From sequence record OQ411014.1: DNA of 64,000 nucleotides, one strand, 5' to 3'. A program made the position numbers and the translations under genes. Origin of the DNA: Escherichia phage EJP2. The notes under the pieces are model-generated. The model was not told the DNA's origin. It searched no databases and saw nothing but the letters and a program-made list of their open reading frames with translations. Positions 4,555-63,933 of the stretch are shown here, one piece after another. The number at the start of each line of letters is the position of its first letter. The first letter of the stretch is position 1.

Positions 4555-4573
4555 AATATCAAAGGAGAAAGTA

Positions 4574-12407: not shown

Positions 12408-12413
12408 ACACTA

Positions 12414-12437: not shown

Positions 12438-12461
12438 AATCCAACACACATAGAGAACAAA

Positions 12462-34516: not shown

Positions 34517-34525
34517 GATAATCTC

Positions 34526-35704: not shown

Positions 35705-35740
35705 AATCAAATCTCCGTAATTAAATCATACAGTATTTAC

Positions 35741-35771
35741 AAAAAAAATGCCAGTACATATTTCAGTACTA
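35741..35771 (-). terminator. rho-independent terminator within paralog array (example)
   Basis: minus strand: agtactgaaatatgtactggc followed by T8. Confidence 0.6.
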
Positions 35772-35775
35772 TATA

Positions 35776-36942
35776 TTATTGGGGAAAGCGTGGATCGTCA
35801 AGAATAAATTCAGTACTGCTAGTTCCACCATCTGTGATATATGTTCCAGTACTATAGATGTAGTTTCCATCAGTTAGATACGTTCTGAAATTCGTACCAA
35901 TAACCTTAACATTAGGCATATCAGTTACTTCAGATGGTAAAATACATTTTGTATAGAATAGTTTATTTCCACTTGAACCTACACCTAAACAAACATAGTT
36001 GCTGGTATTATAACCACTACCATATACACCATCGGTTGTAACAACAAATGATTTATAATATTCGTATCCCAAATTGACACTTAAACGTTCACCTGCGGGT
36101 TGTTGTCCAGCCGAAATAGTACTATAAGCCTTATAAGTACCAGCCGAATCCTGACCATTACCAAGTGCACCAAATCGAGCAGCACCACCATTATATACGT
36201 TTTTAACTAATGAAGAATTTTGGTTTATACCAATAGCAACAAATTCGTTATTACTATACGCTATATTTGGACTTCCAACAGAAGTTGAATTTAACGTATA
36301 AATGGTTACTCTAGCACTAACATCATTATTATTATACCCAACAATTGTTCCAGTGTAATATAATTTACCGTCTTCTGTATTAAATCCATGCATGGTGCTA
36401 TTTGCGAATATTTTATGTGGGATAATACCATCTGGTATGGTGGCTTTAACAAAAGAACCAGTAATATTCGCTGTAGTATTATTTCCTAATTCACCATAGC
36501 TGCCGTACCCAGTTGACCATATAGTATCATTGGATAATAAAACACTTAGAGAGAATTTTGATGTTACGATATCTTTAATATCTGCCTCTAACAACGCAAA
36601 CAATGAAGAACAATCTGTCCATTGATTAACTGAACCACCAGGAACGCCAATATATGAGTTATTACCACTGAACCAGAACTCCCCATTGAACTTTTGAACT
36701 AATATAGTTTCCGCAGTAACCCATACCTTTTGTACGGAATCCAACGTCGGTGTCCATACAGTAACTTTAGTACCACTGGCATTACCCATACCAAACGCAC
36801 CCGATTGGTCACGCCCACGAACAAATAACTCACCAGATGTCATTAGAACAACCGTGAAATACATAGAGCATTTAATATCTTTTATTGGTGCTGGTGTTGG
36901 GGCTTTATTCCCATAATTTATCATCCTCACAAAAGGTAACAT
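35776..36942 (-). CDS. RCC1-like beta-propeller paralog, N-terminal MLPFVRMINYGN
   Basis: 388 aa; YGSGYNTSNYVCLGVG-type repeats. Confidence 0.8.
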   Translation of the reverse strand: MLPFVRMINYGNKAPTPAPIKDIKCSMYFTVVLMTSGELFVRGRDQSGAFGMGNASGTKVTVWTPTLDSVQKVWVTAETILVQKFNGEFWFSGNNSYIGVPGGSVNQWTDCSSLFALLEADIKDIVTSKFSLSVLLSNDTIWSTGYGSYGELGNNTTANITGSFVKATIPDGIIPHKIFANSTMHGFNTEDGKLYYTGTIVGYNNNDVSARVTIYTLNSTSVGSPNIAYSNNEFVAIGINQNSSLVKNVYNGGAARFGALGNGQDSAGTYKAYSTISAGQQPAGERLSVNLGYEYYKSFVVTTDGVYGSGYNTSNYVCLGVGSSGNKLFYTKCILPSEVTDMPNVKVIGTNFRTYLTDGNYIYSTGTYITDGGTSSTEFILDDPRFPQ

Positions 36943-37019
36943 AATTAATTCTCCAAAATTAAAATAATTATAAGGTATTTAATAAAAAAATACCAGCACC
37001 TTTCAGTACTGGTATTATA

Positions 37020-38402
37020 TTACATACTAGTTAATTGTATTTCTGTTAATGTCGCATAAGTTACGCCTTTGTAAATCCCACGCCAATAAATTTTCCCATC
37101 AGTTCCCATAACTACTAATCCATAGGACAAATGAGCACCAGCATCGTTATAGAGTGTTCCACCAACGTACATAGCATCATATACATCAATGCCAATATCT
37201 TCTGGTGTGAAATTCGCCACCGCCCCAGTAGACCATGTTGGACTTGCAAAATAATCACTATATACACCATGTGCTACTGTTATAACACTTGATCCTCGTT
37301 CATACAACACAGTACCACAAAAACTCATGTGGATACGCGTCGTCTGCGTCGTCGGTATATCAACCAATCCAGCACCTGGGTAAGACCCTGTAGTAATCTT
37401 CTTGTAATCACCACCAGTTGTGTTCAAGCTATTGACAGATGTACTACTCATACCAACGTTGTAGTTCTGGTAGTAATAGAAATTACCACTTATATATACT
37501 GAATACCCACCACCAGTACCATTACGTAATAATTTACCACCGGAAGTGAATAATATACCCTCATTACATGAATCAAAATGATATGTATCAGTTGTTGGAG
37601 CAACAATCTCAGTCCATGCTGTTAGGTTCTGATACGCCCCAGGTGTGTTCGTTAAGCATCTATTACTGTTTGTTCCTTTACCAACCAACGAGCCATCTTC
37701 TAATTGTGCATAAATTGCTTGATAACCATCAGTGTAATAAGTTGAGTTGTGAGCGAAACCAAGAATACCACTTATCTTTTTGACTTTTTGTGTTAATTTG
37801 GTATCTTTAACAAAACCAACAGTCCATTGACCATATGATACAATCTCGTTTATCATACCTAACCCATATGGGCCATTGTACCATATCTCACCCGCATCGT
37901 TAAGTACTACAACTAATCCTTCGTACTTACTTGTAAATGTCCCACTATTCCATGTTACTGGTCCGTTATTATATGCACTTACAACAATCGCATCAACTAT
38001 AGTCCCAACTTTGGTCAAAAATGCACTTACATCAACCCATTGGTAATCAGTCGTGAAAGGTGCACTAGTAGTACTCGCGTTAGTGAACAAACCAGTACTG
38101 TACTGTCCACAGAAGAAATATTTTCCGTTATTATCCAGTACTAAACATCCAATGTTTAATAACCAGAAATCCTTTACATTAGTACGGATAGCTTCTAAAC
38201 CAGAATCAACTGGAGTTTGTACACCAAAGGCAACCTTCTTCGTGTTACCCATTCCATAAAGAGTACCATCATTTCCTAAAATAGCACCCGCCCAGTTCCC
38301 ACCGCCATTTGAGTTTCGTCCTCTACCTACAGTTTGCATCTTTGTACCTTTAGGCACTTCAACTGTATTTCCATAATTTAACATCCTCACAAAAGGTAAC
38401 AT
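37020..38402 (-). CDS. beta-propeller-like paralog, N-terminal MLPFVRMLNYGN
   Basis: track ORF extends to TTG at 38417; ATG at 38402 (460 aa); Gly/Thr/Tyr-rich repeats. Confidence 0.8.
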   Translation of the reverse strand: MLPFVRMLNYGNTVEVPKGTKMQTVGRGRNSNGGGNWAGAILGNDGTLYGMGNTKKVAFGVQTPVDSGLEAIRTNVKDFWLLNIGCLVLDNNGKYFFCGQYSTGLFTNASTTSAPFTTDYQWVDVSAFLTKVGTIVDAIVVSAYNNGPVTWNSGTFTSKYEGLVVVLNDAGEIWYNGPYGLGMINEIVSYGQWTVGFVKDTKLTQKVKKISGILGFAHNSTYYTDGYQAIYAQLEDGSLVGKGTNSNRCLTNTPGAYQNLTAWTEIVAPTTDTYHFDSCNEGILFTSGGKLLRNGTGGGYSVYISGNFYYYQNYNVGMSSTSVNSLNTTGGDYKKITTGSYPGAGLVDIPTTQTTRIHMSFCGTVLYERGSSVITVAHGVYSDYFASPTWSTGAVANFTPEDIGIDVYDAMYVGGTLYNDAGAHLSYGLVVMGTDGKIYWRGIYKGVTYATLTEIQLTSM

Positions 38403-38443
38403 AACTAAATTCTCCAAAATTAAAATAATTATAATGTATTTAC
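38403..38443 (-). promoter_or_regulatory. conserved upstream leader/promoter module of paralog array (example)
   Basis: minus strand gtaaatacattataattattttaattttggagaatttagtt-ATG; near-identical upstream of at least 10 paralogs. Confidence 0.5.
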
Positions 38444-38474
38444 AAAAAAATACCAGTACGTATTTCAGTACTGG
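38444..38474 (-). terminator. rho-independent terminator within array
   Basis: minus strand: ccagtac-tgaaatac-gtactgg followed by T7. Confidence 0.65.
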
Positions 38475-38482
38475 CTTTTTAA

Positions 38483-39652
38483 TTAAGAAGGTAATAGAAA
38501 ATTAGCAAATCCACCCATCCCCAATGTGGGTACTAATCCAGCTACAGTTGGTGCTCTATTTGATGGTGAGCTAACAGCAATTCGACCATCTTTATATACC
38601 AATGAATTAGAACTGCCTGTGCATAAGTATCCACCTGAATATGGTACTGTACTTTGTTTACATTTGGTGAAAATTCCAATGGAAGACGATGCATTTATTA
38701 AATTTACACCATCATATCCACAACTATATATCCACCCATCTTCCCCTATGTATAAAGAAGAACTTGCATTTGCCGAACTAACGAACTTTCTGAATATTCG
38801 CTGATCCATAGGAGCAACTGACAATGTACCGGAATAGAATTTATTATTAATACCACTAGTAACACCGTCACCAAATACACCATAAGAACCTGAACCAGTT
38901 GCATAGTATCGTTTATCTCCCAAGAAAATCATACAGTTGTTATTGCATATTTTATATTGATATATTAAAGTAGTATCAATTCCTGGGAAAGATTCAGTAA
39001 ATGATAGAACATTAGCAATTGTACTTGCGTTGCATTGATGACTTGCATTTTGTCCTGATGATAAAATTGTTCCATCTTGTAGTAATATTCGAGATGTACC
39101 AGTACCACTAAAAACTCTTAATGCTGGTTTTGTATTATATATTTGTTTAAATGAAAAGAAACCAACAGACATTATTCCCTGACCACTCCATCCAGTATTG
39201 TCAGTTCCAATAGCCCATACTGAATCGTCTTCAGCGATAACCATAACACCATAGCGGTCAATGCTAATATCTTTAATTTTGGACATATCAATTGCATTGA
39301 ACCTTGAACTAATATCCTTCCATGTTGTTGTGCTTGCAGTAGGACTTACAGTTATATCATTCCCTGCTATATAAACACTCCCACTTATTGTAACATAAAT
39401 CGTTTGGGAATACCCAGTACTGCATAATAATACATTTTCTGAACTTGGAACCTTAATCCATTCGTTGTAAACTCCAGTTTGGGGCGTAATACCTAACTGA
39501 TAAAAATCATTTGACCCAGTAAGATATAGTTTTCCATCCTTAACAAAACTGAAATTAGAACTGTAATCACTGGATGTAAGTCTTGGTTCAATTGGTACTG
39601 GTGGTACTGGTGCATTATTCCCATATTCTAACATCCTCACAAAAGGTAACAT
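38483..39652 (-). CDS. RCC1-like beta-propeller paralog, N-terminal MLPFVRMLEYGN
   Basis: track ORF to 39667 (TTG); ATG at 39652; resembles 43486-44658. Confidence 0.8.
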   Translation of the reverse strand: MLPFVRMLEYGNNAPVPPVPIEPRLTSSDYSSNFSFVKDGKLYLTGSNDFYQLGITPQTGVYNEWIKVPSSENVLLCSTGYSQTIYVTISGSVYIAGNDITVSPTASTTTWKDISSRFNAIDMSKIKDISIDRYGVMVIAEDDSVWAIGTDNTGWSGQGIMSVGFFSFKQIYNTKPALRVFSGTGTSRILLQDGTILSSGQNASHQCNASTIANVLSFTESFPGIDTTLIYQYKICNNNCMIFLGDKRYYATGSGSYGVFGDGVTSGINNKFYSGTLSVAPMDQRIFRKFVSSANASSSLYIGEDGWIYSCGYDGVNLINASSSIGIFTKCKQSTVPYSGGYLCTGSSNSLVYKDGRIAVSSPSNRAPTVAGLVPTLGMGGFANFLLPS

Positions 39653-39739
39653 AACTAAATTCTCCAAAATTAAAATAATTATAATGTATTTACAAAAAAA
39701 TACCAGTACGTATTTCAGTACTGGTATTGTGGTATTGTA

Positions 39740-40846
39740 TCATTTCGGCATTGTAATTGCAGACCATGAATTTGAAGTAATTGGACCTGGTACGAACACT
39801 GTTGAACCACATGCATAAATTTGTCTATCCCCATCATACACAACACTAAAGCTAGTACAAGTAAACAATGACGAATTTAATGGATTGTAAGTATCTAATG
39901 TTAGTGTATTCTCCCACTGACTTGAACCTAGACCACCTGACCTACCAAATGCACCAGTACTGTATATCTTACCTTCAGTTGTTGCATATATATTAACATA
40001 TGAAGTTGAACTGGATTTAGATATTTTATGTATCTTATTATCAATTGCACTAGGGTTAAATGTAAATGGATATATTTGTACGTTAGTTCTTGAACCATTA
40101 CCAAGTTGACCATCATACTGCCAGCCAGCAACGTATGTACTACTACCTGAATATGCTATAGTACTAGTACTGTTACCGCCCAGTATTTTAACACTAGTTA
40201 AACGACTTACTAAAGTAATGTACTGCCCTTGACTCACACCCAGTGAACCATAACTACTAGTCCCACATCCAATAAGGTCACCGTTGGATGTTAAGATTAA
40301 TGTGTTGTTTTGCGTACCATATATATCAGCAACTTCATTTGTACCAGTATTCAGTACTAACACAAAAGCACTCTGTGAACTTGGATATCCACCACCGAGT
40401 GAATAGTTACCGTTCATGCCTCTTCCATAAACCTTTGTACCACTAGCATCTACGTAGTGCATCGTATCTGAACCAATTGATATCATTTTAATATTAGATA
40501 TGTGTGGGAATGAAGAAGTAACATCTAAACCACCCAAGGGGATTGCAGTATTACCCGTACCTAACTGAGAAGTAACTCCGTGTATTCTGAACTCTTCTCC
40601 TTTGAGATACAGAAGACTGTACCCACCAGCCCATGCATCAGAAACACCCTCTGCAACTAATATCCAAGTATTTTTTGCTGCTGTACCAAAGACATTCAAC
40701 TGCAAATATGAATTATCTCCACATCCATATAATGTCCCATCACTATATAGTACGTACAAATTATTGGTTCCACAAAATACTTTCTTGATCGTTATACCTT
40801 CTGGGGCTATATTTCCATAGGTCATTATTCTTGCAAAAGGTAACAT
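39740..40846 (-). CDS. RCC1-like beta-propeller paralog, N-terminal MLPFARIMTYGN
   Basis: 368 aa; LYGCGDNSYLQLNVFG and related repeats. Confidence 0.8.
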   Translation of the reverse strand: MLPFARIMTYGNIAPEGITIKKVFCGTNNLYVLYSDGTLYGCGDNSYLQLNVFGTAAKNTWILVAEGVSDAWAGGYSLLYLKGEEFRIHGVTSQLGTGNTAIPLGGLDVTSSFPHISNIKMISIGSDTMHYVDASGTKVYGRGMNGNYSLGGGYPSSQSAFVLVLNTGTNEVADIYGTQNNTLILTSNGDLIGCGTSSYGSLGVSQGQYITLVSRLTSVKILGGNSTSTIAYSGSSTYVAGWQYDGQLGNGSRTNVQIYPFTFNPSAIDNKIHKISKSSSTSYVNIYATTEGKIYSTGAFGRSGGLGSSQWENTLTLDTYNPLNSSLFTCTSFSVVYDGDRQIYACGSTVFVPGPITSNSWSAITMPK

Positions 40847-40937
40847 AATTAAATCTCCATATAATAATTATAATGTATTTACAAAAAAAGCCAGTACGTA
40901 TTTCAGTACTGGTATTGTGGTATTGTGGTATTGTGAT

Positions 40938-42128
40938 TTAAGGCTTCGGCACTGGCGGTGTTACCAGTTGATATGTGTTCTGAATTGTATTGTTCGAGAA
41001 TGAACGTCCAGTGTAGTATACGTCACCAGCTTTCGTCAAATAAGCAACGCCGAAATCAGCACCAACATATGTTTCCATGCTGCTAATATTAGGTGGATTC
41101 ACTGGCGGCGTAAATCTAGCCTTGTTACTATTAGTACCATTACCAAACCGACCATAAGTACCATTACCTGTAGTATATAATGTACCATTAGTACTAATAA
41201 CGCAACCAATGTCTGAACCATCACCATTGGTGTTAAGTGTTACTGGAGAAGTTATTACAGTACTGCTATCAGTAAGGAATAGTAAGTTATTATTAATACT
41301 TACAGCATTACTTAAACTACCTGTTCCTAAGTTTCCATTAATACTGTTACCACTTACAATTAAGTACCAAGCGTCAGTTGTTGTATTGTTTATCAATATG
41401 AATGAACCATCTGTGTTCATTGCAACATCATGTGGAATTAGGTTAGTAGCTAAATTGTACTTAGTCCATGAATATATGTTATTCGTTGTTGCCGTAATAC
41501 CCAAGATCCCAGAACTATTCTGACCAGTTCTCCAGAGTGAATTATCATTCTTGATAATCCACGTGGTATTAATGCGATGTGTTAATTTTTTTACATCAGT
41601 ATTCAATTTAGTAAAAGTACTAACCATAGTGTTACTACCAAGTCCTAATGTCCCTCCTAGGTTTCTACCCATACCATATAGATCACCATTTTCTAAGTGC
41701 ACTAAAATATGACTCCACGAAACCTGAATATCAATTATACTGTCTATTTGTGTAGGTGTAAAAACACTCGTAAACAAAGTCGTTATATCAGTCCACGTGG
41801 TACTAAACCCAGTACCAGCAACAATATCATTTGCTCCGGTGTAATAAAATTTATTATCAATAGTCTGAATCAATGCGAACTCAACAAGTGAACATGCAAA
41901 TCTTTTAACATCATGATGTACTAAAACCCAATTCGGATAATTTGTACCACCTGAATCACCTTGTCCGAAGCAGTAGTTCCTTGAAGTTCCACCACCAATC
42001 CCATATAGTGTGTTGTCCTTGTACAATATAAACAAACAACCACTATTACCCGATGGCATATAAATTGTTTCTATTGGTGAAGTAGGTAACTTATTCCCGT
42101 ACTCCAAAATTCTTGCAAAAGGTAACAT
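40938..42128 (-). CDS. beta-propeller-like paralog, N-terminal MLPFARILEYGN
   Basis: track ORF to 42188; conserved ATG at 42128 (396 aa). Confidence 0.75.
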   Translation of the reverse strand: MLPFARILEYGNKLPTSPIETIYMPSGNSGCLFILYKDNTLYGIGGGTSRNYCFGQGDSGGTNYPNWVLVHHDVKRFACSLVEFALIQTIDNKFYYTGANDIVAGTGFSTTWTDITTLFTSVFTPTQIDSIIDIQVSWSHILVHLENGDLYGMGRNLGGTLGLGSNTMVSTFTKLNTDVKKLTHRINTTWIIKNDNSLWRTGQNSSGILGITATTNNIYSWTKYNLATNLIPHDVAMNTDGSFILINNTTTDAWYLIVSGNSINGNLGTGSLSNAVSINNNLLFLTDSSTVITSPVTLNTNGDGSDIGCVISTNGTLYTTGNGTYGRFGNGTNSNKARFTPPVNPPNISSMETYVGADFGVAYLTKAGDVYYTGRSFSNNTIQNTYQLVTPPVPKP

Positions 42129-42215
42129 AACTAAATTCTCCAAAATTAAAATAATTATATTGTATTTACAAAAAAAATACCAGCACATATTTCAGTACTG
42201 GTATTGTTTCTTATT

Positions 42216-43406
42216 TTATTGCCATAACTGTGTTGGCATTAGGGTTAGTGTAGTAACAACAGACGCACCATTAGGTAAGTTACCACCAGAACCATTAAAA
42301 CCACCACACGCATATAATTTATAATCTTTAGTAACAATTAATGTCCTGGACCAGTCTTTAGATGCCATAAGAACATTGTCATATCCACCAGGTATAGCAG
42401 TTAATTTAAACAACGCCCACGAATTAACTAGAGTTGTATTTCCTGTTCCTTGTTGACCATATGAATTGACACCACCACTCCTAACATATGATGGGTATTG
42501 AGCCATAGGTGTACCAATTGATGCGTTACCCATAGAACTAGGACATAAGAAAGCATCACTAATATTCACTGTAACTTGTGAATTTTTAACTGGAGTGAGT
42601 TGGTTTGTAGATGAAGTAGTACCATTCCCAGCTTGTCCAGTATTGTTGTAACCACTCCAATACACACTACCAGCAGTGAACCACCAAGTAACATCATAGG
42701 TAGCACTTATATAATCGACGTTCGTTCGTATTAATTTATTAGTATAAACGAATGAGCTAGTCCCACCCCCACTTTCACCAAAGTTATCCTTACCACAAAA
42801 CCATGCTTCTTTATTTGTTTTGAGATAGTGTGTACCCTGTAATGAACATGCGAGTTGAGAAACTTCACCCATATTAGTCATAACTGTTAGTACTGGAATA
42901 GCATTTTTATTCCCTGAACCACATTCAGCATTTGTATTGTTACCACAAGCAATGACTCTTCCATCGTGTAGTAATATTCTAGTACTTTCACCTATATGTA
43001 CACTCTTGATTAAATTAGCGTGCACATTAATTTTGTCAAAGGAAGCAGTAACATCAGTCCATGTTAAGAAATATCCATTAACAGGAGTTGCGGCTCCATA
43101 ATCAGGAAATGCACCTATCGACCCAGTGTAGTATATTCTATTATCCAGATCAATCATCAATGATCCATGAACACCTACCCAAAACGCCGCACAGTGCATT
43201 GCGAGTACAGTAAAAGTAGAAACTGTTGATCTATTCCCTAGACCTAATTGGCCCAAGTTATTACTACCATATCCGTATAATGTATTCGTGGGCTTATGTA
43301 GATACATAGCATTGGTGTATTGTTGCTGTAAAACATCAGTAAACTCTACTGGATCAGGAGGGGCAATCGTATTCCCATAAGTCATTATTCTTGCAAAAGG
43401 TAACAT
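42216..43406 (-). CDS. RCC1-like beta-propeller paralog, N-terminal MLPFARIMTYGN
   Basis: track ORF to 43421; ATG at 43406; clear repeats LYGYGSNNLGQLGLGN, WYSGYNNTGQAGNG, VNSYGQQGTGN. Confidence 0.85.
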   Translation of the reverse strand: MLPFARIMTYGNTIAPPDPVEFTDVLQQQYTNAMYLHKPTNTLYGYGSNNLGQLGLGNRSTVSTFTVLAMHCAAFWVGVHGSLMIDLDNRIYYTGSIGAFPDYGAATPVNGYFLTWTDVTASFDKINVHANLIKSVHIGESTRILLHDGRVIACGNNTNAECGSGNKNAIPVLTVMTNMGEVSQLACSLQGTHYLKTNKEAWFCGKDNFGESGGGTSSFVYTNKLIRTNVDYISATYDVTWWFTAGSVYWSGYNNTGQAGNGTTSSTNQLTPVKNSQVTVNISDAFLCPSSMGNASIGTPMAQYPSYVRSGGVNSYGQQGTGNTTLVNSWALFKLTAIPGGYDNVLMASKDWSRTLIVTKDYKLYACGGFNGSGGNLPNGASVVTTLTLMPTQLWQ

Positions 43407-43447
43407 AACTAAATTCTCCAAAATTAAAATAATTATAATGTATTTAC

Positions 43448-43481
43448 AAAAAAATACCAGTACGTATTTCAGTACTGGTAT
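43448..43481 (-). terminator. rho-independent terminator within array
   Basis: minus strand: taccagtac-N8-gtactggta followed by T7. Confidence 0.65.
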
Positions 43482-43485
43482 AATG

Positions 43486-44658
43486 TTATGGTAAAATAAT
43501 AGCTTGTAACGAACTCATACCCAATTCTGGAACACTCGCCTGTGGTGCTGGTGCATTCACTTTTGGTGATGAAACCGCATAAGTCATTCCTGTACCCAAA
43601 TCTGGATCAAAAACTACAGAACAATAATCCCCATTGTATATAAGTCCATTAGTATATCCTTGTGCACTTTGAATGCATTTCGTGAACGTACCAATGTCAG
43701 TAGTGGCATTTATTAAGTTCCTCCCACGGTAGCCACAGGTGTATATGAAATTATCAACACCTATGTACATACTCGCATTCCCAGAAGAACTACATAGATA
43801 AGACATATAAGCACGCATGTTTTTAGGAGCAACTGACAATGTACCAGCATAGAATTTATTATTCGAACCCGAAATATCACCATCACCCAAAGCACCAAAA
43901 CTCCCCCAACCAGTACCATAATATCTCTTATCACTCAAGAATATAATACAGTTGTTATTACACATCTTGATTTGATATATCAATGAAGGATCAACCCCAG
44001 GGAATGATTCAGTGTATGTTAGAACAGCCAGATCAGTACTAGCATTACATTGATGATATGTATTAGTACCAGCGGACAATATTGTACCATTAGCTAATAG
44101 AATCCTCGAAGTGCCAGTACCAGCAGTACAAGCAACAGCATTACCTGTATATATTTGTCTGAAAGTAAAGAAACCAACAGTTTTACTCCCCTGTCCACTC
44201 CAACCAGTATTATCAACACCACATGCCCATACTGAACCATCTTGCATGATCATCATTACACCATAGCGTTCTATCGAAATATAGACAATCTTCGTAGTAT
44301 CAACTGCACTAAATCTAGAAGTTATATCAGTCCAAACCTTTACACTCACCGCCGTCGCACCGAAAGTAGGATCTTCCCCTGCTATCATTATCCTACCATT
44401 GTTAGTCAGATACATTGTCTGACCATAACCAGTACTACAAAACTTAACACTATCAGTCTCTGGAACTTTTAACCACTCGTTGTAACGTGTTACGTTAGTG
44501 TTATTACCTAACTGATAATAGTTATTCATCCCAGATACATATAACACACCATCCTTTATTAAACTATAAGTCGCACTATAGTCACTACAGGTATAACGTG
44601 TACCCACAGGCCGCTCAACGACGTTCCCATATTCTAACATCCTTACAAAAGGTAACAT
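43486..44658 (-). CDS. RCC1-like beta-propeller paralog, N-terminal MLPFVRMLEYGN
   Basis: track ORF to 44664; ATG at 44658; LYVSGMNNYYQLGNNT repeat. Confidence 0.8.
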   Translation of the reverse strand: MLPFVRMLEYGNVVERPVGTRYTCSDYSATYSLIKDGVLYVSGMNNYYQLGNNTNVTRYNEWLKVPETDSVKFCSTGYGQTMYLTNNGRIMIAGEDPTFGATAVSVKVWTDITSRFSAVDTTKIVYISIERYGVMMIMQDGSVWACGVDNTGWSGQGSKTVGFFTFRQIYTGNAVACTAGTGTSRILLANGTILSAGTNTYHQCNASTDLAVLTYTESFPGVDPSLIYQIKMCNNNCIIFLSDKRYYGTGWGSFGALGDGDISGSNNKFYAGTLSVAPKNMRAYMSYLCSSSGNASMYIGVDNFIYTCGYRGRNLINATTDIGTFTKCIQSAQGYTNGLIYNGDYCSVVFDPDLGTGMTYAVSSPKVNAPAPQASVPELGMSSLQAIILP

Positions 44659-44732
44659 AATCAAATCTCCGTAATTAAATCATACAGTATTTACAAAAAA
44701 ATACCAGTACATATTCCAGTACTGGCCTATTA

Positions 44733-45854
44733 TTAAAAGGGCAACGGTAACTCAGTAAAAGTACTTACGTTCGGTAAACCATACATTAAATTAGCATCAC
44801 CACAGTAATACCACTTCGTAGAATCATGTACCACCGATAAACGCTGTGCACATAACACTTCCTGTATGTCATTAAACACCATCGGGACTAACTCATATGT
44901 ATCCGCATATGAAGATTCACCACCACTCGCATGAAAAGTATTCATCCCAGCATAAAATAACTGATTAGTGTTCTTACCCACAGCAAATGTCATCAATATC
45001 CCATCATTCTCCCATAAAGAAGAAAACTTATCAACACTACCAGAAAGCTCTGTGTAAGTACTCGTAATGGCACTCGCAGCCGCCGCATTACCCATCTGTT
45101 TATTCAAGTTCTGTCCAGCAATAAAATATCTCGTGCGTGCACTAGAATCAGTATATAATAACCCAGTGTTCGTAGTCATCATTCCAATGTCCTTAATCGT
45201 CATACCAGTCTGTGAATAACTTAGATACGAAGTTAAACTACCATTATTACCCAACGAACCGTTATCACTCATGCCACAACGATGTAATATACCACTTGTA
45301 TCAACGTAGATAGTACTAACTAAACTCGTATACAACTCTTGTACATTATTCGCAATAAACACAGCAGTCGCCTTATTAGTAACCCCACCAAATGATAGGT
45401 TATTATCAAATCCCTTAGCGTATAATTGATTATTAGTAGTAACTAACCCAATCGCGTAATAAGATATTTTCATATCCCTTACAGTACTCAAATCTACTAC
45501 CCCAAATTGATGCGTAACATCTGTCCATGTGAAAATCTGTGCACTACCAACACCACCCGTTTCAAACCATTTGTCACCACAGTACAATATGCGATTATCC
45601 TTAGTAAAGATAACTGTTACCAATCCACTACCACACGCAAACTTTACATCACTTCTAACCTTCGTCCAATCAAGTACATAGGTAGTGGTGTTATTACCTA
45701 TACCTAACTTACCATAACGGTTATAACCACGCACCCACAAATCACCACTCTCAGTAATTAATAGTAATGCGTCTCCTGTACTTATTATTCGAAATCCCGA
45801 ACTAGGATCGGGTGCTATATTCCCATAAGTCATCATTCTTGCAAAAGGCAACAT
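44733..45854 (-). CDS. beta-propeller-like paralog, N-terminal MLPFARMMTYGN
   Basis: 373 aa; WVRGYNRYGKLGIGNN repeat. Confidence 0.8.
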   Translation of the reverse strand: MLPFARMMTYGNIAPDPSSGFRIISTGDALLLITESGDLWVRGYNRYGKLGIGNNTTTYVLDWTKVRSDVKFACGSGLVTVIFTKDNRILYCGDKWFETGGVGSAQIFTWTDVTHQFGVVDLSTVRDMKISYYAIGLVTTNNQLYAKGFDNNLSFGGVTNKATAVFIANNVQELYTSLVSTIYVDTSGILHRCGMSDNGSLGNNGSLTSYLSYSQTGMTIKDIGMMTTNTGLLYTDSSARTRYFIAGQNLNKQMGNAAAASAITSTYTELSGSVDKFSSLWENDGILMTFAVGKNTNQLFYAGMNTFHASGGESSYADTYELVPMVFNDIQEVLCAQRLSVVHDSTKWYYCGDANLMYGLPNVSTFTELPLPF

Positions 45855-45935
45855 AATAAAATCTCCGTAATTAAATCATACAGTATTTACAAAATACCAG
45901 CACATATTTCAGTACTGGTATAGTGGTATATTAAA

Positions 45936-47084
45936 TCACTGCACAAATGACATATCAACTTCTGTGTAACTAGGCACGCTCTGTGTAGAAAGACCACCCA
46001 TTGCTACCATCGCAATTCCACAATAATATAACTTCCCTTTGTCATCGAGTAACAATGTCCCAGATGGTGTTGTTACTAAATTACACGAAGTATTAAAAGA
46101 AGTATATGAAGGAGTATAGTAGTACTGATTAATGGTATTACCTACACCTAATTTTCCATACCCATTGCCGCCAGATGCGTAAAGTACTTCATCTGCTTTG
46201 ACAATATGTGATGCCATGTTACTAACACACGTATATACAGCACTAACTCCTGTACTCAATAATGTAGGAGTCTTGTATTGGAGATCAGTACTGGAAGATG
46301 TTCCACCTGTACCAAATTCATTACCGTATTGTGCACCGTATTGTTTACCACATCCGTACAAATTACCATCACTCTTAATAAAAAACGTACTCTGGTAACT
46401 TACATTAAAATCAATAACATCTGATGCAATCTGCTTTACTCCAGTGATAGAAACCTGATCCCCTGTACCTAACTGATAGTAATAGTTAAATCCACATCCC
46501 CATAAGGTATTGTCTGTACGCAAATAAATGTTACCAACAGCCTTTTTAACAGACGTTATAGTACTGACCTTCTTGAATGTATTAAATGAACTAATGTTTG
46601 TACCATCTCCAAAGGATGTTATATTAGATATGTTATTAGCACCACAACAATATAATGTACCGTCATTTGTTACCAAATTCACCTTCATATTATTAAAACT
46701 ACTCATGTACGCAATATCCGAAACAGTAATACCACTGGATGTTATCCACGTAGTACAATCCGTCCATAACGTCTTTCTATCAGTTACACCAGTGAATGCA
46801 TTTGTGTTTCCAGTCATAAACACTTTCCCTGTGCCCTCTTCTTCATACAACTGACAATCACTGCTGTTATCTTCCAATAGAACTCTTTTAACGTTCTCTG
46901 CACATAGAATAAATTTACTCGCAGCTACTCCAGTTCCCGTACCATAAATGCTTCCAGATGATGCATACAACTTTTTAGTGAAAGTATCATGTAAGTATAC
47001 AGACATACTAGAATATATTTTAAAACGATCATCGTTAGTAGGAGCAACATTACTGTACTCCAATATCCTCGCAAAAGGTAACAT
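45936..47084 (-). CDS. beta-propeller-like paralog, N-terminal MLPFARILEYSN
   Basis: track ORF to 47099; ATG at 47084; Gly/Thr/Asn-rich repeats. Confidence 0.75.
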   Translation of the reverse strand: MLPFARILEYSNVAPTNDDRFKIYSSMSVYLHDTFTKKLYASSGSIYGTGTGVAASKFILCAENVKRVLLEDNSSDCQLYEEEGTGKVFMTGNTNAFTGVTDRKTLWTDCTTWITSSGITVSDIAYMSSFNNMKVNLVTNDGTLYCCGANNISNITSFGDGTNISSFNTFKKVSTITSVKKAVGNIYLRTDNTLWGCGFNYYYQLGTGDQVSITGVKQIASDVIDFNVSYQSTFFIKSDGNLYGCGKQYGAQYGNEFGTGGTSSSTDLQYKTPTLLSTGVSAVYTCVSNMASHIVKADEVLYASGGNGYGKLGVGNTINQYYYTPSYTSFNTSCNLVTTPSGTLLLDDKGKLYYCGIAMVAMGGLSTQSVPSYTEVDMSFVQ

Positions 47085-47123
47085 AACTAAATTCTCCATA
47101 CAATAATTATAATGTATTTAACC

Positions 47124-47153
47124 AAAAAAAGCCAGCACCTTTCAGTACTGGTA
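47124..47153 (-). terminator. rho-independent terminator within array
   Basis: minus strand: accagtactgaaaggtgctggc followed by T7. Confidence 0.6.
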
Positions 47154-47162
47154 TCTATAATC

Positions 47163-48059
47163 CTATGTAAAAACATACTGCGTGTTAACACGTGTACCAT
47201 TGTCAAAACCAAGCACATAAAATATCTCAGGACTATTATTAGAACCAAATAACGCTCCAGTACTACTACTCAAAGTACTATTAACCGCTAACGCAATCCA
47301 TTCGTTTTGTTCTTGGTCGTATCTCAATAAATTTAATGCACCAAATGATACTGCATATATTTGTTTATCATATGTATTGTAAATTATTTTACTAGGGTTA
47401 GAACCACCAACACCAGCAATGTTAGACCACACAGCACTCTGTATATGATATTTTTGTGCAGTACTCACACCTTGGCCTGTAATATATATGTAAGTACCAT
47501 CTGTACACATATCACCACCACCATTGTTATTTGTACCATCACTCGTACCTAATGATGCCCAGGTATTAGTACTAGGAGTATAACTGTATAACGAATTATT
47601 AGTAGGAGATCCCCACAAATATATCTTATCACCAGCAGTAATCATCTTACTATACGCCAGTTGATTAGGCTTCCCAATACTGTTAGTGTTCAGAATCCAG
47701 GTATTTGTACTTATATTATATACATAAAAATTATTAGCACCATTACCAGTACCACCAAACAAATATATTTTCCCCTCATAAAAACATAACGCACTACCAA
47801 ATGTAGATACAGGTGCATTGGCTAATTGTAACCACGTTCTAGTACTTAAATTAAAACTCCATAACTGATTATCCCCCATCACCGCATTCTGTATACCACC
47901 AAATATATAAGCAGTATTACTTTTCGCATCATACGTATAACCAAAGTTATTTTTAGCAGGAGGTACAGGTGATGTCGTAAATGCAGAACGTATTCCCCTA
48001 TTGGTAGCAAACACCTCTGCAACATTCCCGTACTCCAACATCCTTACAAAAGGTAACAT
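47163..48059 (-). CDS. Kelch-like beta-propeller paralog, N-terminal MLPFVRMLEYGN (short member)
   Basis: 298 aa; Kelch-type spacing: AYIFGG...WSFNLSTRTW...KIYLFGG...YVYNISTNTW. Confidence 0.75.
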   Translation of the reverse strand: MLPFVRMLEYGNVAEVFATNRGIRSAFTTSPVPPAKNNFGYTYDAKSNTAYIFGGIQNAVMGDNQLWSFNLSTRTWLQLANAPVSTFGSALCFYEGKIYLFGGTGNGANNFYVYNISTNTWILNTNSIGKPNQLAYSKMITAGDKIYLWGSPTNNSLYSYTPSTNTWASLGTSDGTNNNGGGDMCTDGTYIYITGQGVSTAQKYHIQSAVWSNIAGVGGSNPSKIIYNTYDKQIYAVSFGALNLLRYDQEQNEWIALAVNSTLSSSTGALFGSNNSPEIFYVLGFDNGTRVNTQYVFT

Positions 48060-48136
48060 AACTAATTCTCCAAAATTAAAATAATTATAATGTATTTACA
48101 AAAATACCAGCACCTTTCAGTACTGGTATAGTAGTA

Positions 48137-49246
48137 TTATATCGGTAAATCTATCTTAGTGAAAATACCAACATCTTCACTCGCTCCAGGTATTGCATAA
48201 TATGTCCCAGTACTGTACACTTCACCATCTTTTGTTAATATAGATGTTAAACCATCACTATAAAGAACATCCCTGATATCACTAACTCCAACTGGTAACT
48301 GCAAATTCGTTGCACTATAAACCGCTCCAGTCTGAGAATTGTTTAATCCTAAACCACGGTTTGAACCTACACCCTTCTGATATGTACTAGTAATTATAAT
48401 TTGTGTAGCAGTATTTAATGCAGGTGAATTCGTCATAAACAACGGAGAACTATTAGGCAAAGAACTTGCAGGAACTGCACGAAATGTAGTTGCATCTGAA
48501 CTAAGAAAGTTTGGCGTTTGACCACATACGAAATATGATGTACCATTATAGTAATTAAATGCATTACCACCTATAGCTGCATCTATTACTCCAGTACTAC
48601 GTAATCCCCACGTGTTAATTTGTGTTCGGTTCCCCGTACCATGCTGACCCCTGTCATTCCACCCAGAACTATATAACTTATTATCTAATGTAATATACAT
48701 ACTGTCATTTGCATTCGTCATTACTTTACGCACATTAGTAGCACATTGAGTTAATGTGTAAATTGATGATGAACCAATACCTAAAGCACCACGATATCCA
48801 TTAGCCCCTGCACCATAGAGTACTGAACTAGTGCTAAGTACAAATATTAAACCATACGAACATACTATATCAGCAATTTCATTTACCGATAGTACACTAG
48901 TAAACCACGCAGTCCTATCAACTAATACAGTACTGTAAGAAGTCCCAGTAGAAGACGAAAACCAATAAGTCTCACCAGTAGTCCATATAGTATTGTCACT
49001 CTTAATAACAACAACTGTACGATCACCAGCAAAAAAATTAGTAACTCCTGTACTCACTAATGTCCATGAAGATACAGTGTTCGTATTGTTATTACCCGAT
49101 TCCCCACCCTGATTCCTACCTATGTAATATAATTCATTCGTGTCAGTCAACACATACTGCCCCTGCGTCGATGCCCCAACCTTAATTATATTTTTAGGAC
49201 CGGGTGCAACATTCCCGTACTCCAACATCCTTACAAAAGGTAACAT
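48137..49246 (-). CDS. RCC1-like beta-propeller paralog, N-terminal MLPFVRMLEYGN
   Basis: 369 aa; LYSSGWNDRGQHGTGN, LYGAGANGYRGALGIG; 10 bp downstream of 49257-50387. Confidence 0.8.
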   Translation of the reverse strand: MLPFVRMLEYGNVAPGPKNIIKVGASTQGQYVLTDTNELYYIGRNQGGESGNNNTNTVSSWTLVSTGVTNFFAGDRTVVVIKSDNTIWTTGETYWFSSSTGTSYSTVLVDRTAWFTSVLSVNEIADIVCSYGLIFVLSTSSVLYGAGANGYRGALGIGSSSIYTLTQCATNVRKVMTNANDSMYITLDNKLYSSGWNDRGQHGTGNRTQINTWGLRSTGVIDAAIGGNAFNYYNGTSYFVCGQTPNFLSSDATTFRAVPASSLPNSSPLFMTNSPALNTATQIIITSTYQKGVGSNRGLGLNNSQTGAVYSATNLQLPVGVSDIRDVLYSDGLTSILTKDGEVYSTGTYYAIPGASEDVGIFTKIDLPI

Positions 49247-49256
49247 ATTTCTCTCC

Positions 49257-50387
49257 TTAATTTAATAATGCCCCTGGCAAATCCACTTTGACGAATTGTG
49301 CATATGCTGTGGAATTTTGATCAAAGTTTGGTCCCAATCCATAAAATGAGCTAATGCCGTCTTCATTTGTGTATATGATATAAACGTTCTTTACATCATT
49401 TCCGCATATAAATCGAATGTCTTTCGTTTGTGTTCCCGCTGGAACATTACGAAGGCTCACAACGCCATTACTTGCATTGTTATCAGCCGACGCAATTGGT
49501 AATTGATTTTGACCATATTGACCACGCATATTTTTTGCATCTAAACCAAACACAGTATTTGATACCGCACCAACTTTCAAAAATGAACCAAAACTATCAT
49601 TGAATGACTTTGGAAATGTACCACTATAAACACTTCTCCCATCTGATAATACCGCTGAACTGAATTTCCCGCTATTCGATATGGCAAATTCATTGTAAGG
49701 AAGTGTACCCATTTTGGTATATACAGAATATGAATTAGTGGAAGTATTATCAATAATCTTATTACCATTATATCCAATACCATACTGGTATCCGTCTGCA
49801 TCTTGAACTATACACAAAGGACCACTTGGGGTTTGTGTCAACGAAACAACACGTTCAACTTGTATATCACCAAATGTATTTCTTCGCCATGTTCTATCTA
49901 TTATAGTACTAGTATTACCCAAAGATAATGCCACACTATATAATAGATTGTTTTCAGTAAAAATGGCAACATAATATGCGTGGTTAATAACTTGCTTCAT
50001 CCCAGCATCAATAACTTCCTGTGGAATATGATCAGTAACATCCAACCAATCAAGGTTAGATGATGCAATATCTGGAGTACTGAATTTGTCAAATCTAGTT
50101 GAGCCACAAACTAGCACTCTATCATCATTTGTCAAAGCCACTGTGCTAGTCTGCATATTAGAACTGAATGATTTAACATTACTAATGTTAGACTTGTACC
50201 AACCCTTATCAGCAGCACCCACCGTGAATCCGGTTCCCATTGATCCACTTGTACTTGTACCATAAGCCCACATCTCACCACTATATGTTAGTGCCATACA
50301 GTGGCTTCCATTTGCTTGGAAATCCTTTATACCAGTGGGAGCAGCCACTGTATTCCCATAATTAAACATTCTAACAAAAGGTAACAT
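49257..50387 (-). CDS. beta-propeller-like paralog, N-terminal MLPFVRMFNYGN (first gene of array)
   Basis: track ORF to 50396; conserved ATG at 50387; upstream conserved gtaaatactatataat motif. Confidence 0.75.
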   Translation of the reverse strand: MLPFVRMFNYGNTVAAPTGIKDFQANGSHCMALTYSGEMWAYGTSTSGSMGTGFTVGAADKGWYKSNISNVKSFSSNMQTSTVALTNDDRVLVCGSTRFDKFSTPDIASSNLDWLDVTDHIPQEVIDAGMKQVINHAYYVAIFTENNLLYSVALSLGNTSTIIDRTWRRNTFGDIQVERVVSLTQTPSGPLCIVQDADGYQYGIGYNGNKIIDNTSTNSYSVYTKMGTLPYNEFAISNSGKFSSAVLSDGRSVYSGTFPKSFNDSFGSFLKVGAVSNTVFGLDAKNMRGQYGQNQLPIASADNNASNGVVSLRNVPAGTQTKDIRFICGNDVKNVYIIYTNEDGISSFYGLGPNFDQNSTAYAQFVKVDLPGALLN

Positions 50388-50501
50388 AATAATCATCCCT
50401 ATACAATAAAATTATATAGTATTTACCAAAACAACTATTGACAACACAATAGCAGTACTGTATAGTATAGCAATAAAATTCCCACATAAAGGCCCAACAA
50501 C

Positions 50502-62423: not shown

Positions 62424-62642
62424 ATGAATTTAAATAAAGTCGAAACGAAAACTATGGTTGAAGCTATTAAACACGGTTTCACATTTAGAAATGATTCACA
62501 TTTTATTAATTTTCAACAAGGCCATAGAACTATTAAAAAACTAACAGACAAAGGTTTATTAGTAGAAGTGAATGAAGGGAACGGCGTGGAATATCGCCCT
62601 ACCCATGACGGTATTACATTTATGAAATACAGTGTAAAATAA
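62424..62642 (+). CDS. hypothetical small protein
   Basis: 72-aa ORF. Confidence 0.6.
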   Translation: MNLNKVETKTMVEAIKHGFTFRNDSHFINFQQGHRTIKKLTDKGLLVEVNEGNGVEYRPTHDGITFMKYSVK

Positions 62643-62654
62643 TTCAAAAAGTAC

Positions 62655-62717
62655 TTGCACAGTACTGAGATTCAGGTATAATGTTTTACATAGAGCGGGG
62701 GAATGGTTCTCCCGCCT
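62655..62717 (+). promoter_or_regulatory. early-type promoter + leader hairpin
   Basis: TTGCAC-N16-TATAAT then agagcggggga-atgg-ttctcccgcc. Confidence 0.65.
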
Positions 62718-62735
62718 ACATTAAGGAATAGAATC

Positions 62736-62960
62736 ATGACTACATACGCAGCACTCGAATCAGTAGTATCAGACCTGGCATTTGAATCTAAGCCGTTTGA
62801 TGCGATCTATAGTACTGATTACCGTGATGCCGTCCTGAATAGTACGCAGGAAGAAAAAGATAAACTTATCGCAACATACCATGAAGCATGGAAGTACTAC
62901 CGCCAATGGGAAAAAGAAGAAAGTGAGTCTACCATCGACGGCCTGAATAATTTAATTTAA
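62736..62960 (+). CDS. hypothetical small protein
   Basis: track ORF from 62703; ATG at 62736 follows RBS aaggaa (74 aa). Confidence 0.55.
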   Translation: MTTYAALESVVSDLAFESKPFDAIYSTDYRDAVLNSTQEEKDKLIATYHEAWKYYRQWEKEESESTIDGLNNLI

Positions 62961-62980
62961 AAAGTTTTATTTCAGTACTA

Positions 62981-63009
62981 TTGACATAGCTTGATAGTAC
63001 TGACATAAT
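62981..63009 (+). promoter_or_regulatory. type-II promoter (TTGACA-N17-CATAAT)
   Basis: ttgacatagcttgatagtactgacataat. Confidence 0.6.
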
Positions 63010-63046
63010 AACTTTTATCAAGTACATACTATTAAGGAAACAAATC

Positions 63047-63460
63047 ATGACTTCTCAAGCTCAAAACGTCCTGGCCCAAAATATTCAAGCTGACAAAAAT
63101 CATGCCGCTATGGTTGTTGGTTATATTCAAGCTATGCAATTCAGTACTGTACACAATGAGAACGGCGATTACCTGGAAGATTATGAGCTATCTGATGAAG
63201 CACGTCAAGCGGCGGTGATTGCATGTTCTCGTTTCCTTGAGAAACACGGTAATGATCTGGAAGTAGTTCGCGGCATGTTTATTGACTATAGTTATGAGAA
63301 AGCAGGTAATGATCTGTTTCTTACCCGCGAAGGTCACGGAACTGGTTTTTGGGATCGTGATTTAGGTCACTACAGCGATGTATTCACGAAGTACTGCGAA
63401 AGTATTAATGTTTGTGATCCGTACCTGGGCGATGATAACTTGATCTATATGGGTGAGTAA
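63047..63460 (+). CDS. hypothetical protein
   Basis: 137 aa; RBS aaggaaa. Confidence 0.6.
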   Translation: MTSQAQNVLAQNIQADKNHAAMVVGYIQAMQFSTVHNENGDYLEDYELSDEARQAAVIACSRFLEKHGNDLEVVRGMFIDYSYEKAGNDLFLTREGHGTGFWDRDLGHYSDVFTKYCESINVCDPYLGDDNLIYMGE

Positions 63461-63721
63461 ATGGCTGTAGGATTTGCAAAGGACGGAGCGGAGCAATTAG
63501 AGATTCTGGCGGTCGTGGAGGCCGCTGTACAGCACGCAAGAAATCAGCTAGGGGATAGTACTACTGAATCACTTAAACACTGTCAGGACTGTTTTAAGCC
63601 TATTCCTGAACGTCGTAGAGAACTGGTTAAAGGTTGCAAATATTGTATTGACTGTCAAACGGAATATGATACTATATTTAAACGAGATCCGCGTAATTGC
63701 TGGCATAGGTCGATGAGATAG
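63461..63721 (+). CDS. TraR/DksA-family C4 zinc-finger protein
   Basis: 86 aa; HCQDCFKPIPERRRELVKGCKYCIDCQ matches the CxxC-x-PIPxxRR-x-CxxC pattern of TraR-like proteins; TAAATG coupling. Confidence 0.6.
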   Translation: MAVGFAKDGAEQLEILAVVEAAVQHARNQLGDSTTESLKHCQDCFKPIPERRRELVKGCKYCIDCQTEYDTIFKRDPRNCWHRSMR

Positions 63722-63743
63722 GGGATCACTCCCCTGTTTTATT
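63721..63743 (+). terminator. rho-independent terminator
   Basis: ggggatcactcccc followed by tgttttatt. Confidence 0.55.
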
Positions 63744-63808
63744 ATTTCAGTACTGTAACCTATAGATACATTTATGCACCCGGTGGGTTAGTTGTTGTCA
63801 TGGGATAT

Positions 63809-63837
63809 ATTATGCCAGTACTGGATAAGGTTGTCAA
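63809..63837 (-). promoter_or_regulatory. minus-strand type-II promoter inside repeated element
   Basis: reverse complement reads TTGACA-accttatccagtactgg-CATAAT. Confidence 0.55.
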
Positions 63838-63871
63838 CAATTATTTTGATGTAATTATTTTAAAAAAGTAC

Positions 63872-63933
63872 TTGCACAGTACTGAAAAAGGCGTATAATG
63901 TTTTACATCGAGAGGGGGAATACTTCTCCCTGG
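63872..63933 (+). promoter_or_regulatory. early-type promoter + leader hairpin
   Basis: TTGCAC-N16-TATAAT then gagaggggga-atac-ttctccct. Confidence 0.65.

Follow-up and report, generated by a model that had tools for sequence, protein, structure and literature searches.

A YbiI-type zinc-finger protein of the DksA/TraR superfamily, and putative early modulator of host RNA polymerase, encoded by the jumbo phage EJP2

We identify in Escherichia phage EJP2 (sequence record OQ411014.1) a small gene for a C4 zinc-finger protein of the DksA/TraR superfamily; the window referred to below is the 64,000-nucleotide stretch of this phage that was analysed, and the gene occupies its positions 63461..63721. 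By profile, sequence and predicted fold, the 86-residue product sits in the YbiI-like branch of the superfamily and not among the TraR proteins proper. We propose that it is probably an early phage factor of the secondary channel of host RNA polymerase (RNAP), shifting initiation off ribosomal RNA (rRNA) and ribosomal-protein promoters without guanosine tetraphosphate (ppGpp). The finding is correct but ordinary, the family being already annotated as DksA/TraR-like in GenBank phage records. What the analysis adds is the placement in the YbiI branch, a partial helix-tip motif and two clade-specific termini that are conserved at the protein level.

The gene was read from the raw sequence and a list of open reading frames (ORFs) as an ATG-initiated frame on the plus strand, with the TAG stop at 63719-63721 counted within its coordinates, and its full product is MAVGFAKDGAEQLEILAVVEAAVQHARNQLGDSTTESLKHCQDCFKPIPERRRELVKGCKYCIDCQTEYDTIFKRDPRNCWHRSMR. 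A peptide that an earlier, sequence-only reading had quoted as a zinc-finger core occurs exactly in this product. The same reading assigned the protein to the zf-dskA_traR family, and the Pfam search bears the assignment out, with PF01258 scoring 34.7 bits over residues 38-69 (gathering score 24.9; E = 1.8e-08). PHROGs assigns the protein to phrog_54, 'DksA-like zinc-finger protein' (E = 8e-17). Matches by tblastn were found in 782 phage records, with a query coverage of 80% or more in 405 of them; frequent GenBank labels are 'TraR/DksA C4-type zinc finger protein', 'DksA-like zinc-finger protein' and 'C-4 type zinc finger protein', and the ten commonest host genera of the 782 records are all Gammaproteobacteria. 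An exhaustive profile search returned 1784 representative clusters at E <= 1e-3, of which 163 reach E <= 1e-10. The only phage-type sequence with the C-terminal tail among these clusters is P0020 (155 bits), and those that follow score 94 bits or less, align from residue 1 to about residue 70 and are YbiI-like. The frame at 63461..63721 is a real gene, carried by a jumbo phage that has Asteriusvirus and Salmonella phage Munch among its relatives.

Three lines of evidence carry the placement within the superfamily. Among the NCBIfam models, the top match is NF008243 / PRK11019, the Escherichia coli YbiI type, with 72.2 bits over residues 1-71 (cut-off 96), followed by the TraR subfamily model TIGR02419 with 47.5 bits (cut-off 59.7), the TraR equivalog NF010268 with 24.3 bits (cut-off 108) and the DksA models with about 13-15 bits (cut-offs 105-115). 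A sequence search of the PDB likewise puts YbiI first (2KGO, deposited as 'uncharacterized protein'; 1.8e-11 over residues 1-70), with TraR (5W1S/6N57) at about 2e-4 over the zinc core only and DksA marginal at 0.04. The AlphaFold2 (AF2) model, built with 44 homologs, has a predicted local distance difference test (pLDDT) score of 73.6 and consists of helices at 8-29, 50-55 and 63-71 plus a zinc globule. Searched with Foldseek against the PDB, it retrieves in order YbiI, RNAP-bound TraR (5W1S_M, 6N57_M), DksA and DksA2, and the top ten matches all belong to the DksA/TraR family; the superposition on 5W1S_M has a root-mean-square deviation of 3.7 A over 62 columns. Against viral models (BFVD), Foldseek gave generic DksA-like matches only, with weak scores. 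A profile-profile comparison of the family with TraR by hhalign reaches 98% probability, restricted to residues 21-70. The TraR query was verified against annotated traR genes, with 98.6% identity over all 73 residues. The earlier label, TraR/DksA-like, thus holds for the superfamily and gives way at the level of TraR proper, where profile, sequence and fold all favour the YbiI-like branch.

Conservation counts given here come from 44 close homologs, and motif counts from 42 close phage homologs and 149 family representatives. The zinc ligands C41, C44, C62 and C65 are invariant in the 44 homologs, whereas C59 varies between Cys and Val, which excludes it as a ligand. I48, P49, R52, R53 and G9 are also invariant, and D8, A10 and E50 are conserved in at least 90%. 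With the zinc ligands as anchor and an offset of +4, TraR I44-P45-E46, R48 and R49, which contact the rim helices and beta'Si3, correspond to I48-P49-E50, R52 and R53; the counterpart of TraR K50 is E54, which is variable in the 44 homologs. The sequence-only reading had written the motif with one residue between the first CxxC and PIP and a gap of 9-10 residues between RR and the second CxxC. The C4 core and the second CxxC are indeed present, but two residues separate CxxC from PIP (C41-Q-D-C44-F-K-P47-I-P), as in TraR, and R52-R53 is followed by C62 after eight, a difference that is immaterial.

On both sides of the zinc finger the protein carries segments of its own clade. Residues 1-7 (MAVGFAK) form a conserved clade-specific extension ahead of the long helix, and inspection of the representatives yields a family N-terminal motif, M-A-x-G-[W/F]-x-x-D-G-A-x-Q. 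All 42 close phage homologs and 104 of the 149 representatives begin with M..G[WFYM], and 38/42 and 81/149 combine this start with D8.A10. At the other end, the short predicted C-terminal helix (63-71) is unrelated in sequence to TraR 58-73 and is followed by the clade-specific tail. We read this tail as a diverged version of the one in YbiI, ...YNRRGSKDSQLR. The canonical YbiI-type tail, ...[Y/F]NRRGSKDSQLR, occurs in 50 of the 149 representatives and in none of the 42 close phage homologs, and one retrieved homolog, P0081 (...HNRKVWHRSMR), is intermediate between it and the phage form RNCWHRSMR. Because P0081 bridges the two forms, we regard the tail as an ancestral feature of the YbiI branch that TraR lacks; tail-less family members of 68-72 residues also exist. 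Across eight phage genes, more than one codon is used at 40 of the 48 invariant amino-acid columns, with four codons each at S84 and G9, and this variation in codon shows purifying selection on the zinc-finger frame at the protein level. It also rules out a DNA or RNA element as the source of the conserved gene ends, a possibility that was considered and rejected.

Two side observations concern the 3' end of the gene. The C-terminal 26 residues alone (61-86; 63641-63718) match phrog_25948, a 54-position profile whose function is not assigned (E = 1.2e-11); a second small phage protein may thus carry the conserved tail too, or it may be present on truncated or mis-called copies of this gene. 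On a 989-nucleotide Logan contig, a 99%-identical sequence, P0001, is called as a 145-residue read-through in which the stop is replaced by Gln, and the frame crosses the terminator into a small ORF at 63800-63898 (window region 63719-63898). The probable cause is a point variant, or else a sequencing error, in a phage that is nearly identical.

Table 1. Features of the zinc-finger gene, its product and its transcription unit in the EJP2 window.
Feature	Position	Strand	Basis
Near-consensus sigma70 promoter: TTGACA, 17-nucleotide spacer, extended -10 TG, CATAAT; discriminator AACTTTTATC	62981..63009	+	11/12 match
First cistron, 137-residue protein, phrog_1915	63047..63460	+	ORF list, PHROGs
Shine-Dalgarno-like GGGTGAG, 3 nucleotides ahead of the start codon, within the end of the upstream cistron	63451..63457	+	read from sequence
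Coding sequence, YbiI-type DksA/TraR-family C4 zinc-finger protein, 86 residues	63461..63721, stop included	+	
N-terminal motif MAVGFAKDGAEQxE, codons 1-14, nearly invariant	63461..63502	+	
Predicted long N-terminal helix, putative secondary-channel probe, codons 8-29 (equivalent to TraR 2-27)	63482..63547	+	AF2, Foldseek, hhalign
C4 zinc-finger globule, codons 41-66 (C41, C44, C62, C65; I48-P49-E50; R52-R53)	63581..63658	+	Pfam, PDB match, conservation
Basic C-terminal tail FKRxPRNCWHRSMR, codons 73-86, nearly invariant	63677..63718	+	conservation, synonymous variation
Intrinsic-terminator-like hairpin over the stop codon, ends the operon	63712..63747	+	folding -18.3 kcal/mol, z = -4.07

Among the closest known proteins, YbiI (PDB 2KGO; NF008243 / PRK11019) is of almost equal length at 88 residues and is the best match by both sequence and fold. 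The two proteins share the MAxG[W/F]AxD.A motif, the helix, the IPxxRR zinc finger and a basic tail ending in Arg. The phage protein differs in having E11 where bacteria usually have V, in one or two extra linker residues, and in its tail, where RNCWHRSMR and the YbiI form YNRRGSKDSQLR are connected only through intermediates such as P0081. Whereas ybiI is chromosomal and rpoS-dependent (PMC4447067), the phage gene lies in a lytic phage behind a sigma70 consensus promoter. F-plasmid TraR (73 residues; 5W1S, 6N57/6N58), a secondary-channel binder that acts independently of ppGpp, has a three-element architecture in common with the predicted fold of the phage protein. The counterparts of TraR I44, P45, R48 and R49 are invariant in the 44 homologs and that of E46 is conserved in at least 90%. 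In contrast to TraR, the phage protein has no full DxxDxA, seven extra N-terminal residues, a C-terminal helix unrelated in sequence with a conserved 14-residue tail behind it, and a variable counterpart of K50. In the cryo-EM work on TraR, the globular domain (28-57) sits on the beta' rim helices, which R48 contacts, while E46, R49 and K50 face Si3, and the C-terminal helix (58-73) lies on the beta lobe/Si1 (PMC6970531, PMC9239242). DksA (151 residues; 1TJL, 7KHI) has in common with the phage protein the Pfam zinc-finger domain and, with D74/A76, a putative counterpart of the D-x-A tip. Its architecture is a different one: a protein of about 150 residues, roughly twice as long, with a two-helix coiled coil that carries the motif in a tip loop and a need for ppGpp, as opposed to 86 residues and a single N-terminal helix in the AF2 model.

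The closest functional precedents are the small C4 proteins of Gammaproteobacteria phages, lambda Orf73, P2 Orf82, VHML Orf8 and VP882 Orf61/TraR_VP882, which are encoded in early or regulatory regions among small ORFs (PMC9239242; bioRxiv 10.64898/2026.07.27.740977). The role proposed for lambda Orf73, P2 Orf82, VHML Orf8 and VP882 Orf61 is to divert host RNAP away from the promoters of rRNA and ribosomal-protein genes, and five phage TraR homologs that were tested all bound RNAP and inhibited such promoters (PMC9239242). Those homologs come from temperate phages, are about 61-82 residues long and are of TraR type with DxxDxA (partly degenerate in P2 Orf82), whereas the EJP2 protein belongs to a virulent-type jumbo phage, has T4-like orthologues, falls in the YbiI branch and has no conserved QisA-like partner that we could find.

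The sequence-only reading had placed the gene among the early genes, which receives indirect support from its sigma70 promoter, from the promoter-rich block of short ORFs around it, from the terminal repeats of two relatives and from a proposal made for phage CBB. The promoter upstream (Table 1) likely drives a two-gene operon in which the zinc-finger gene is the second cistron, and those at 59572 and 59837 share its hexamers, 17-nucleotide spacing, TG and discriminator. The product of the first cistron matches only phrog_1915, of unannotated function; searches against Pfam, the PDB and PADLOC gave nothing for it. The TAA stop of this cistron (63458-63460) adjoins the ATG of the zinc-finger gene without a gap, and the GGGTGAG inside its end predicts translational coupling of the two cistrons. 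At the far end, the hairpin has the stem AGGGGA (63720-63725) / TCCCCT (63730-63735), the loop TCAC and a T-rich tract at 63736-63747; a simple terminator scan missed it and folding of the strand found it. A near-consensus sigma70 promoter on the minus strand (63837->63809; TTGACA-17-CATAAT with TG) is aimed at the 3' end of the zinc-finger gene, and could either yield an antisense transcript through the hairpin or be a chance occurrence or cassette remnant.

The promoter of the operon is one of many. The plus strand of the window holds 28 promoters that match at least 11 of the 12 consensus positions, 10 of them perfectly, with about 1.75 expected per strand from shuffled sequences (examples lie at 53758, 56253, 58964, 60592, 61468 and 61807, besides 59572, 59837 and 62981). 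Several of them recur as cassettes with hexamers, spacing and discriminators in common (GTTTTATATC, GTTTTACATC, AACTTTTATC), and all 28 discriminators are A+T-rich, with 1-4 G/C in 8 positions. The zinc-finger gene thereby fits within a plus-strand block of short ORFs with the apparent architecture of early genes transcribed by host RNAP. In CBB, a Rak2-like phage, an equivalent short-ORF block, which has a sigma factor and promoters of RpoD type, has been put forward as an early host-takeover region reaching into the terminal repeat (PMC5259590), and PA5oct, a relative, depends on host RNAP (PMC7318152). The papers we found on Asteriusvirus and Rak2-like phages, searched for expression of a DksA/TraR-like gene, either present no temporal transcriptome or make no mention of such a gene.

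We propose the following sequence of events, in which RNAP binding is suggested by the family, the contact residues and the predicted fold; the earlier description of the protein as a modulator of host RNAP keeps the standing of an inference, given that YbiI is the closest relative, that half of the tip motif is kept and that family members do not all act like DksA. Soon after infection, the host sigma70 holoenzyme (Esigma70) would express the zinc-finger protein. Its N-terminal helix would enter the secondary channel toward the active site while the zinc globule seats on the channel rim, and the two YbiI-clade additions, MAVGFAK and RNCWHRSMR, may supply further contacts, close to the active site and on the beta lobe/Si1 or nucleic acid. 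The protein would then act in the manner of TraR and lambda Orf73, with no need of ppGpp, and destabilise the open complexes that form at rRNA and ribosomal-protein promoters of the host. Phage consensus promoters, whose A+T-rich discriminators lead one to expect stable open complexes, would escape this effect or even profit from it, and RNAP would be freed for phage genes. G+C-rich discriminators and open complexes of short life characterise the promoters that DksA/ppGpp or TraR inhibit, rrnB P1 among them, and the A+T-rich discriminators of the phage should therefore make its promoters comparatively insensitive. The Si1 and Si3 insertions on which TraR relies are present in the RNAP of Gammaproteobacteria, the group of the ten commonest host genera of the carrier phages, and this host range fits a dependence on them.

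Several observations weigh against this proposal, and some of them concern the tip of the helix. D74 and A76 are critical tip residues of DksA and form the D-x-A half of the DxxDxA motif (Lennon et al., PMC4010833), and DxxDxA, R48/R49 and the C-terminal helix are the functional hallmarks of TraR (Gopalkrishnan et al., PMC9239242). The full DxxDxA is absent from the phage protein: its sequence reads F5-A-K-D8-G-A10-E11, which keeps only the D-x-A half, and F5 (W in bacteria) replaces the first Asp. From D8 to the first Cys the spacing is 31 in 77 of 91 YbiI-like representatives, the same as from D6 to C37 in TraR and from the second Asp of P0177, a retrieved homolog with a true DxxDxA. In the window protein it is 33, and 31-33 across the phage clade, the longer distance arising because the linker is slightly longer. 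Because the zinc-anchored spacing is alike, D8-x-A10 is a credible counterpart of TraR D6-x-A8 and of DksA D74-x-A76. MAFFT and hhalign nevertheless put D8/A10 one residue off register with TraR D6/A8, and since hhalign also covers residues 21-70 only, the equivalence of the tip to that of TraR stays putative. The idea that E11 supplies the second acidic residue of a Gre-like DxxE was dropped; the D8..E11 pair occurs in only 3 of the 149 representatives and is a peculiarity of the phage clade, whereas D8.A10 runs through the family.

Other points on this side concern family and fold. The phage protein reaches neither the YbiI equivalog cut-off of NCBIfam nor those set for the TraR subfamily and equivalog. 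Confidence in the AF2 model is moderate and its C-terminal tail is unmodelled, and the Foldseek E-values to TraR are weak (0.02-0.04). Two C4 zinc-finger members, RSP0166 and SMc00049, are not DksA-like in action (PMC9239242, PMC4010833). YbiI, the nearest structurally characterized relative, has no established function, and the authors who studied it favoured an iron-related role (PMC2613031). What we found in the literature on the function of YbiI amounts to its sigmaS dependence, its listing in Fur-regulon papers and one 'data not shown' remark, namely that overexpressed YbiI rescued dksA auxotrophy (PMC2613031).

These points give some room, on our estimate a minor share, to the possibility that the YbiI-like protein acts outside the RNAP channel, with the zinc finger as a scaffold and the termini binding another target, for instance nucleic acid, a ribosome-associated factor or one linked to stress or metals. 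The top match by sequence and fold is, after all, the uncharacterised YbiI, whose tail is conserved in 50 of 149 representatives, and the two most conserved segments of the phage protein (1-14 and 73-86) are exactly those without a TraR counterpart. Yet E50, R52, R53 and the D-x-A tip at TraR-like spacing are conserved as well, the reported rescue of dksA auxotrophy by YbiI (PMC2613031) speaks for an action on RNAP, an iron-metabolism factor is of no obvious use to a lytic phage, and the hosts of the carrier phages are largely or wholly Gammaproteobacteria. A bolder idea, to which we give similarly limited credence, is that the YbiI branch constitutes a distinct class of polymerase-channel factors, with MAVGF reaching past where the TraR N-terminus lies into the active-site region and RNCWHRSMR lying on the beta lobe or nucleic acid, or else that the termini bind a target other than RNAP.

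A rather unlikely variant accepts RNAP as the target and has the protein mainly regulate the phage's own programme, through middle or late promoters or together with a phage sigma factor, instead of shutting off host rRNA synthesis. The window does encode a sigma70-family protein of 330 residues at 4574-5566 on the plus strand (Sigma70_r2 36.3 and r3 34.2 bits, both over the Pfam cut-offs; phrog_351), with which the phage evidently retargets the host RNAP core, to judge from these domain matches. TraR activates F-plasmid promoters and its homologs both activate and inhibit (PMC9239242), and relatives have distinct middle- and late-type promoters (PMC5259590). This variant gains no advantage from the sequence, however, with which it and host shut-off are both compatible, and the two could well hold together.

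The neighbourhood of the gene bears on whether it acts alone. Its nearest relatives are those of Salmonella phages Munch, PHA46 and 7t3 and Klebsiella phage fENko-Kae01 (76-77%), followed by those of Asteriusvirus phages such as 121Q and PBECO4 (about 69%) and of T4-like phages of about 172 kb (Moonvirus CF1, Kanagawavirus Entb_45; about 67-70%); the identity of the window protein to its nearest known sequences is 76-84%. Annotated orthologues include 121Q gp294 ('DksA-like zinc-finger protein'), Munch gp007 ('zinc finger protein'), a 'TraR/DksA C4-type zinc finger protein' of Enterobacter phage Entb_45, and gp108 of Citrobacter phage CF1. These four share with the window protein 67-77% full-length identity, both terminal motifs and a neighbourhood of short early-type ORFs, but the flanking genes of the jumbo and T4-like orthologues are others in every lineage. 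In CF1 the orthologue lies between tk/rI-like genes and the gene of an RNA polymerase ADP-ribosylase. In fENko-Kae01 (record 4429-4689) and vB_Ec-M-J (record 12349-12606) the annotation puts it in direct terminal repeats, about 20 kb and about 21.5 kb long, which makes two copies per genome.

Across six lineages the upstream ORFs encode 137, 195, 48, 77, 72 and 67 residues, and BLASTP detected no similarity among the upstream or the downstream ORFs, except between two sister T4-like phages. Nucleotide similarity to Asteriusvirus by megablast (about 88%; window 62642-63461) stops exactly at the zinc-finger start codon. In the Asteriusvirus phage EC22.5-2, the segment homologous to window 62642-63461, with its homolog of the 137-residue ORF (47346-48958), and the zinc-finger orthologue (42280-42534) are separated by about 5 kb. 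This arrangement points to the TAA/ATG boundary as a mosaic junction or rearrangement. Because flanking genes differ in every lineage, the zinc-finger gene appears to act as an independent module, and a conserved partner gene of the kind seen in the QisA-TraR pair of VP882 was considered and rejected on the unrelated flanking ORFs. It follows that we attach very little weight to the idea that the protein works only in complex with the coupled 137-residue upstream protein, for which the abutting TAA and ATG with the internal Shine-Dalgarno-like sequence, the VP882 precedent (bioRxiv 10.64898/2026.07.27.740977) and the upstream ORFs that overlap or abut the start codon in several lineages could be cited; outside the sister T4-like pair the neighbours are unrelated, and the Asteriusvirus homolog of the upstream gene lies well away from the zinc-finger gene. 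The last conceivable reading, a chance ORF or decaying remnant with a fortuitous CxxC...CxxC, might appeal to the mere 86 residues and the position at a mosaic junction where Asteriusvirus similarity stops, but it is already refuted by a Pfam match over the curated threshold, full-length matches in 405 phage records, synonymous-only variation at 40 of 48 invariant residues, and a Shine-Dalgarno-like sequence, promoter and terminator of the gene's own. PADLOC gave no match to a defence or anti-defence family.

Elsewhere in the window, a tandem, uninterrupted run of about 15 minus-strand ORFs of 298-465 residues occupies 33386-50396 in an otherwise plus-strand region. RCC1-like beta-propeller repeats (phrog_4219; Pfam RCC1, RCC1_2, WD40_RLD) were found in the ORFs scanned at 33386-34516 and 37020-38417 and in a separate copy at 19676-20854 (minus strand), and the ORF at 47163-48059, within the array, matches a different family, phrog_12615. 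Two further plus-strand ORFs stand within the block of short early-type ORFs, one resembling an HNH/homing endonuclease (25910-27007; phrog_559) and one encoding a 506-residue 'virion structural protein' (14936-16456; phrog_20398).

Since relatives already carry a DksA-like annotation for this gene, the finding has modest practical value. The phage gene is nonetheless a clean and abundant entry point to the YbiI branch, and D8, A10, R52/R53 and the tail give specific mutational hypotheses. Should the preferred reading, an early factor of the host RNAP secondary channel, be right, the protein would correspond, in a lytic jumbo phage, to lambda Orf73: a small, early and ppGpp-independent reprogrammer of RNAP that makes the enzyme available to consensus phage promoters. 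If the YbiI branch were in truth a distinct class of channel factors, virulent jumbo and T4-like phages would own a dedicated factor for host shut-off or RNAP retargeting, and the role of bacterial YbiI would be revealed with it.

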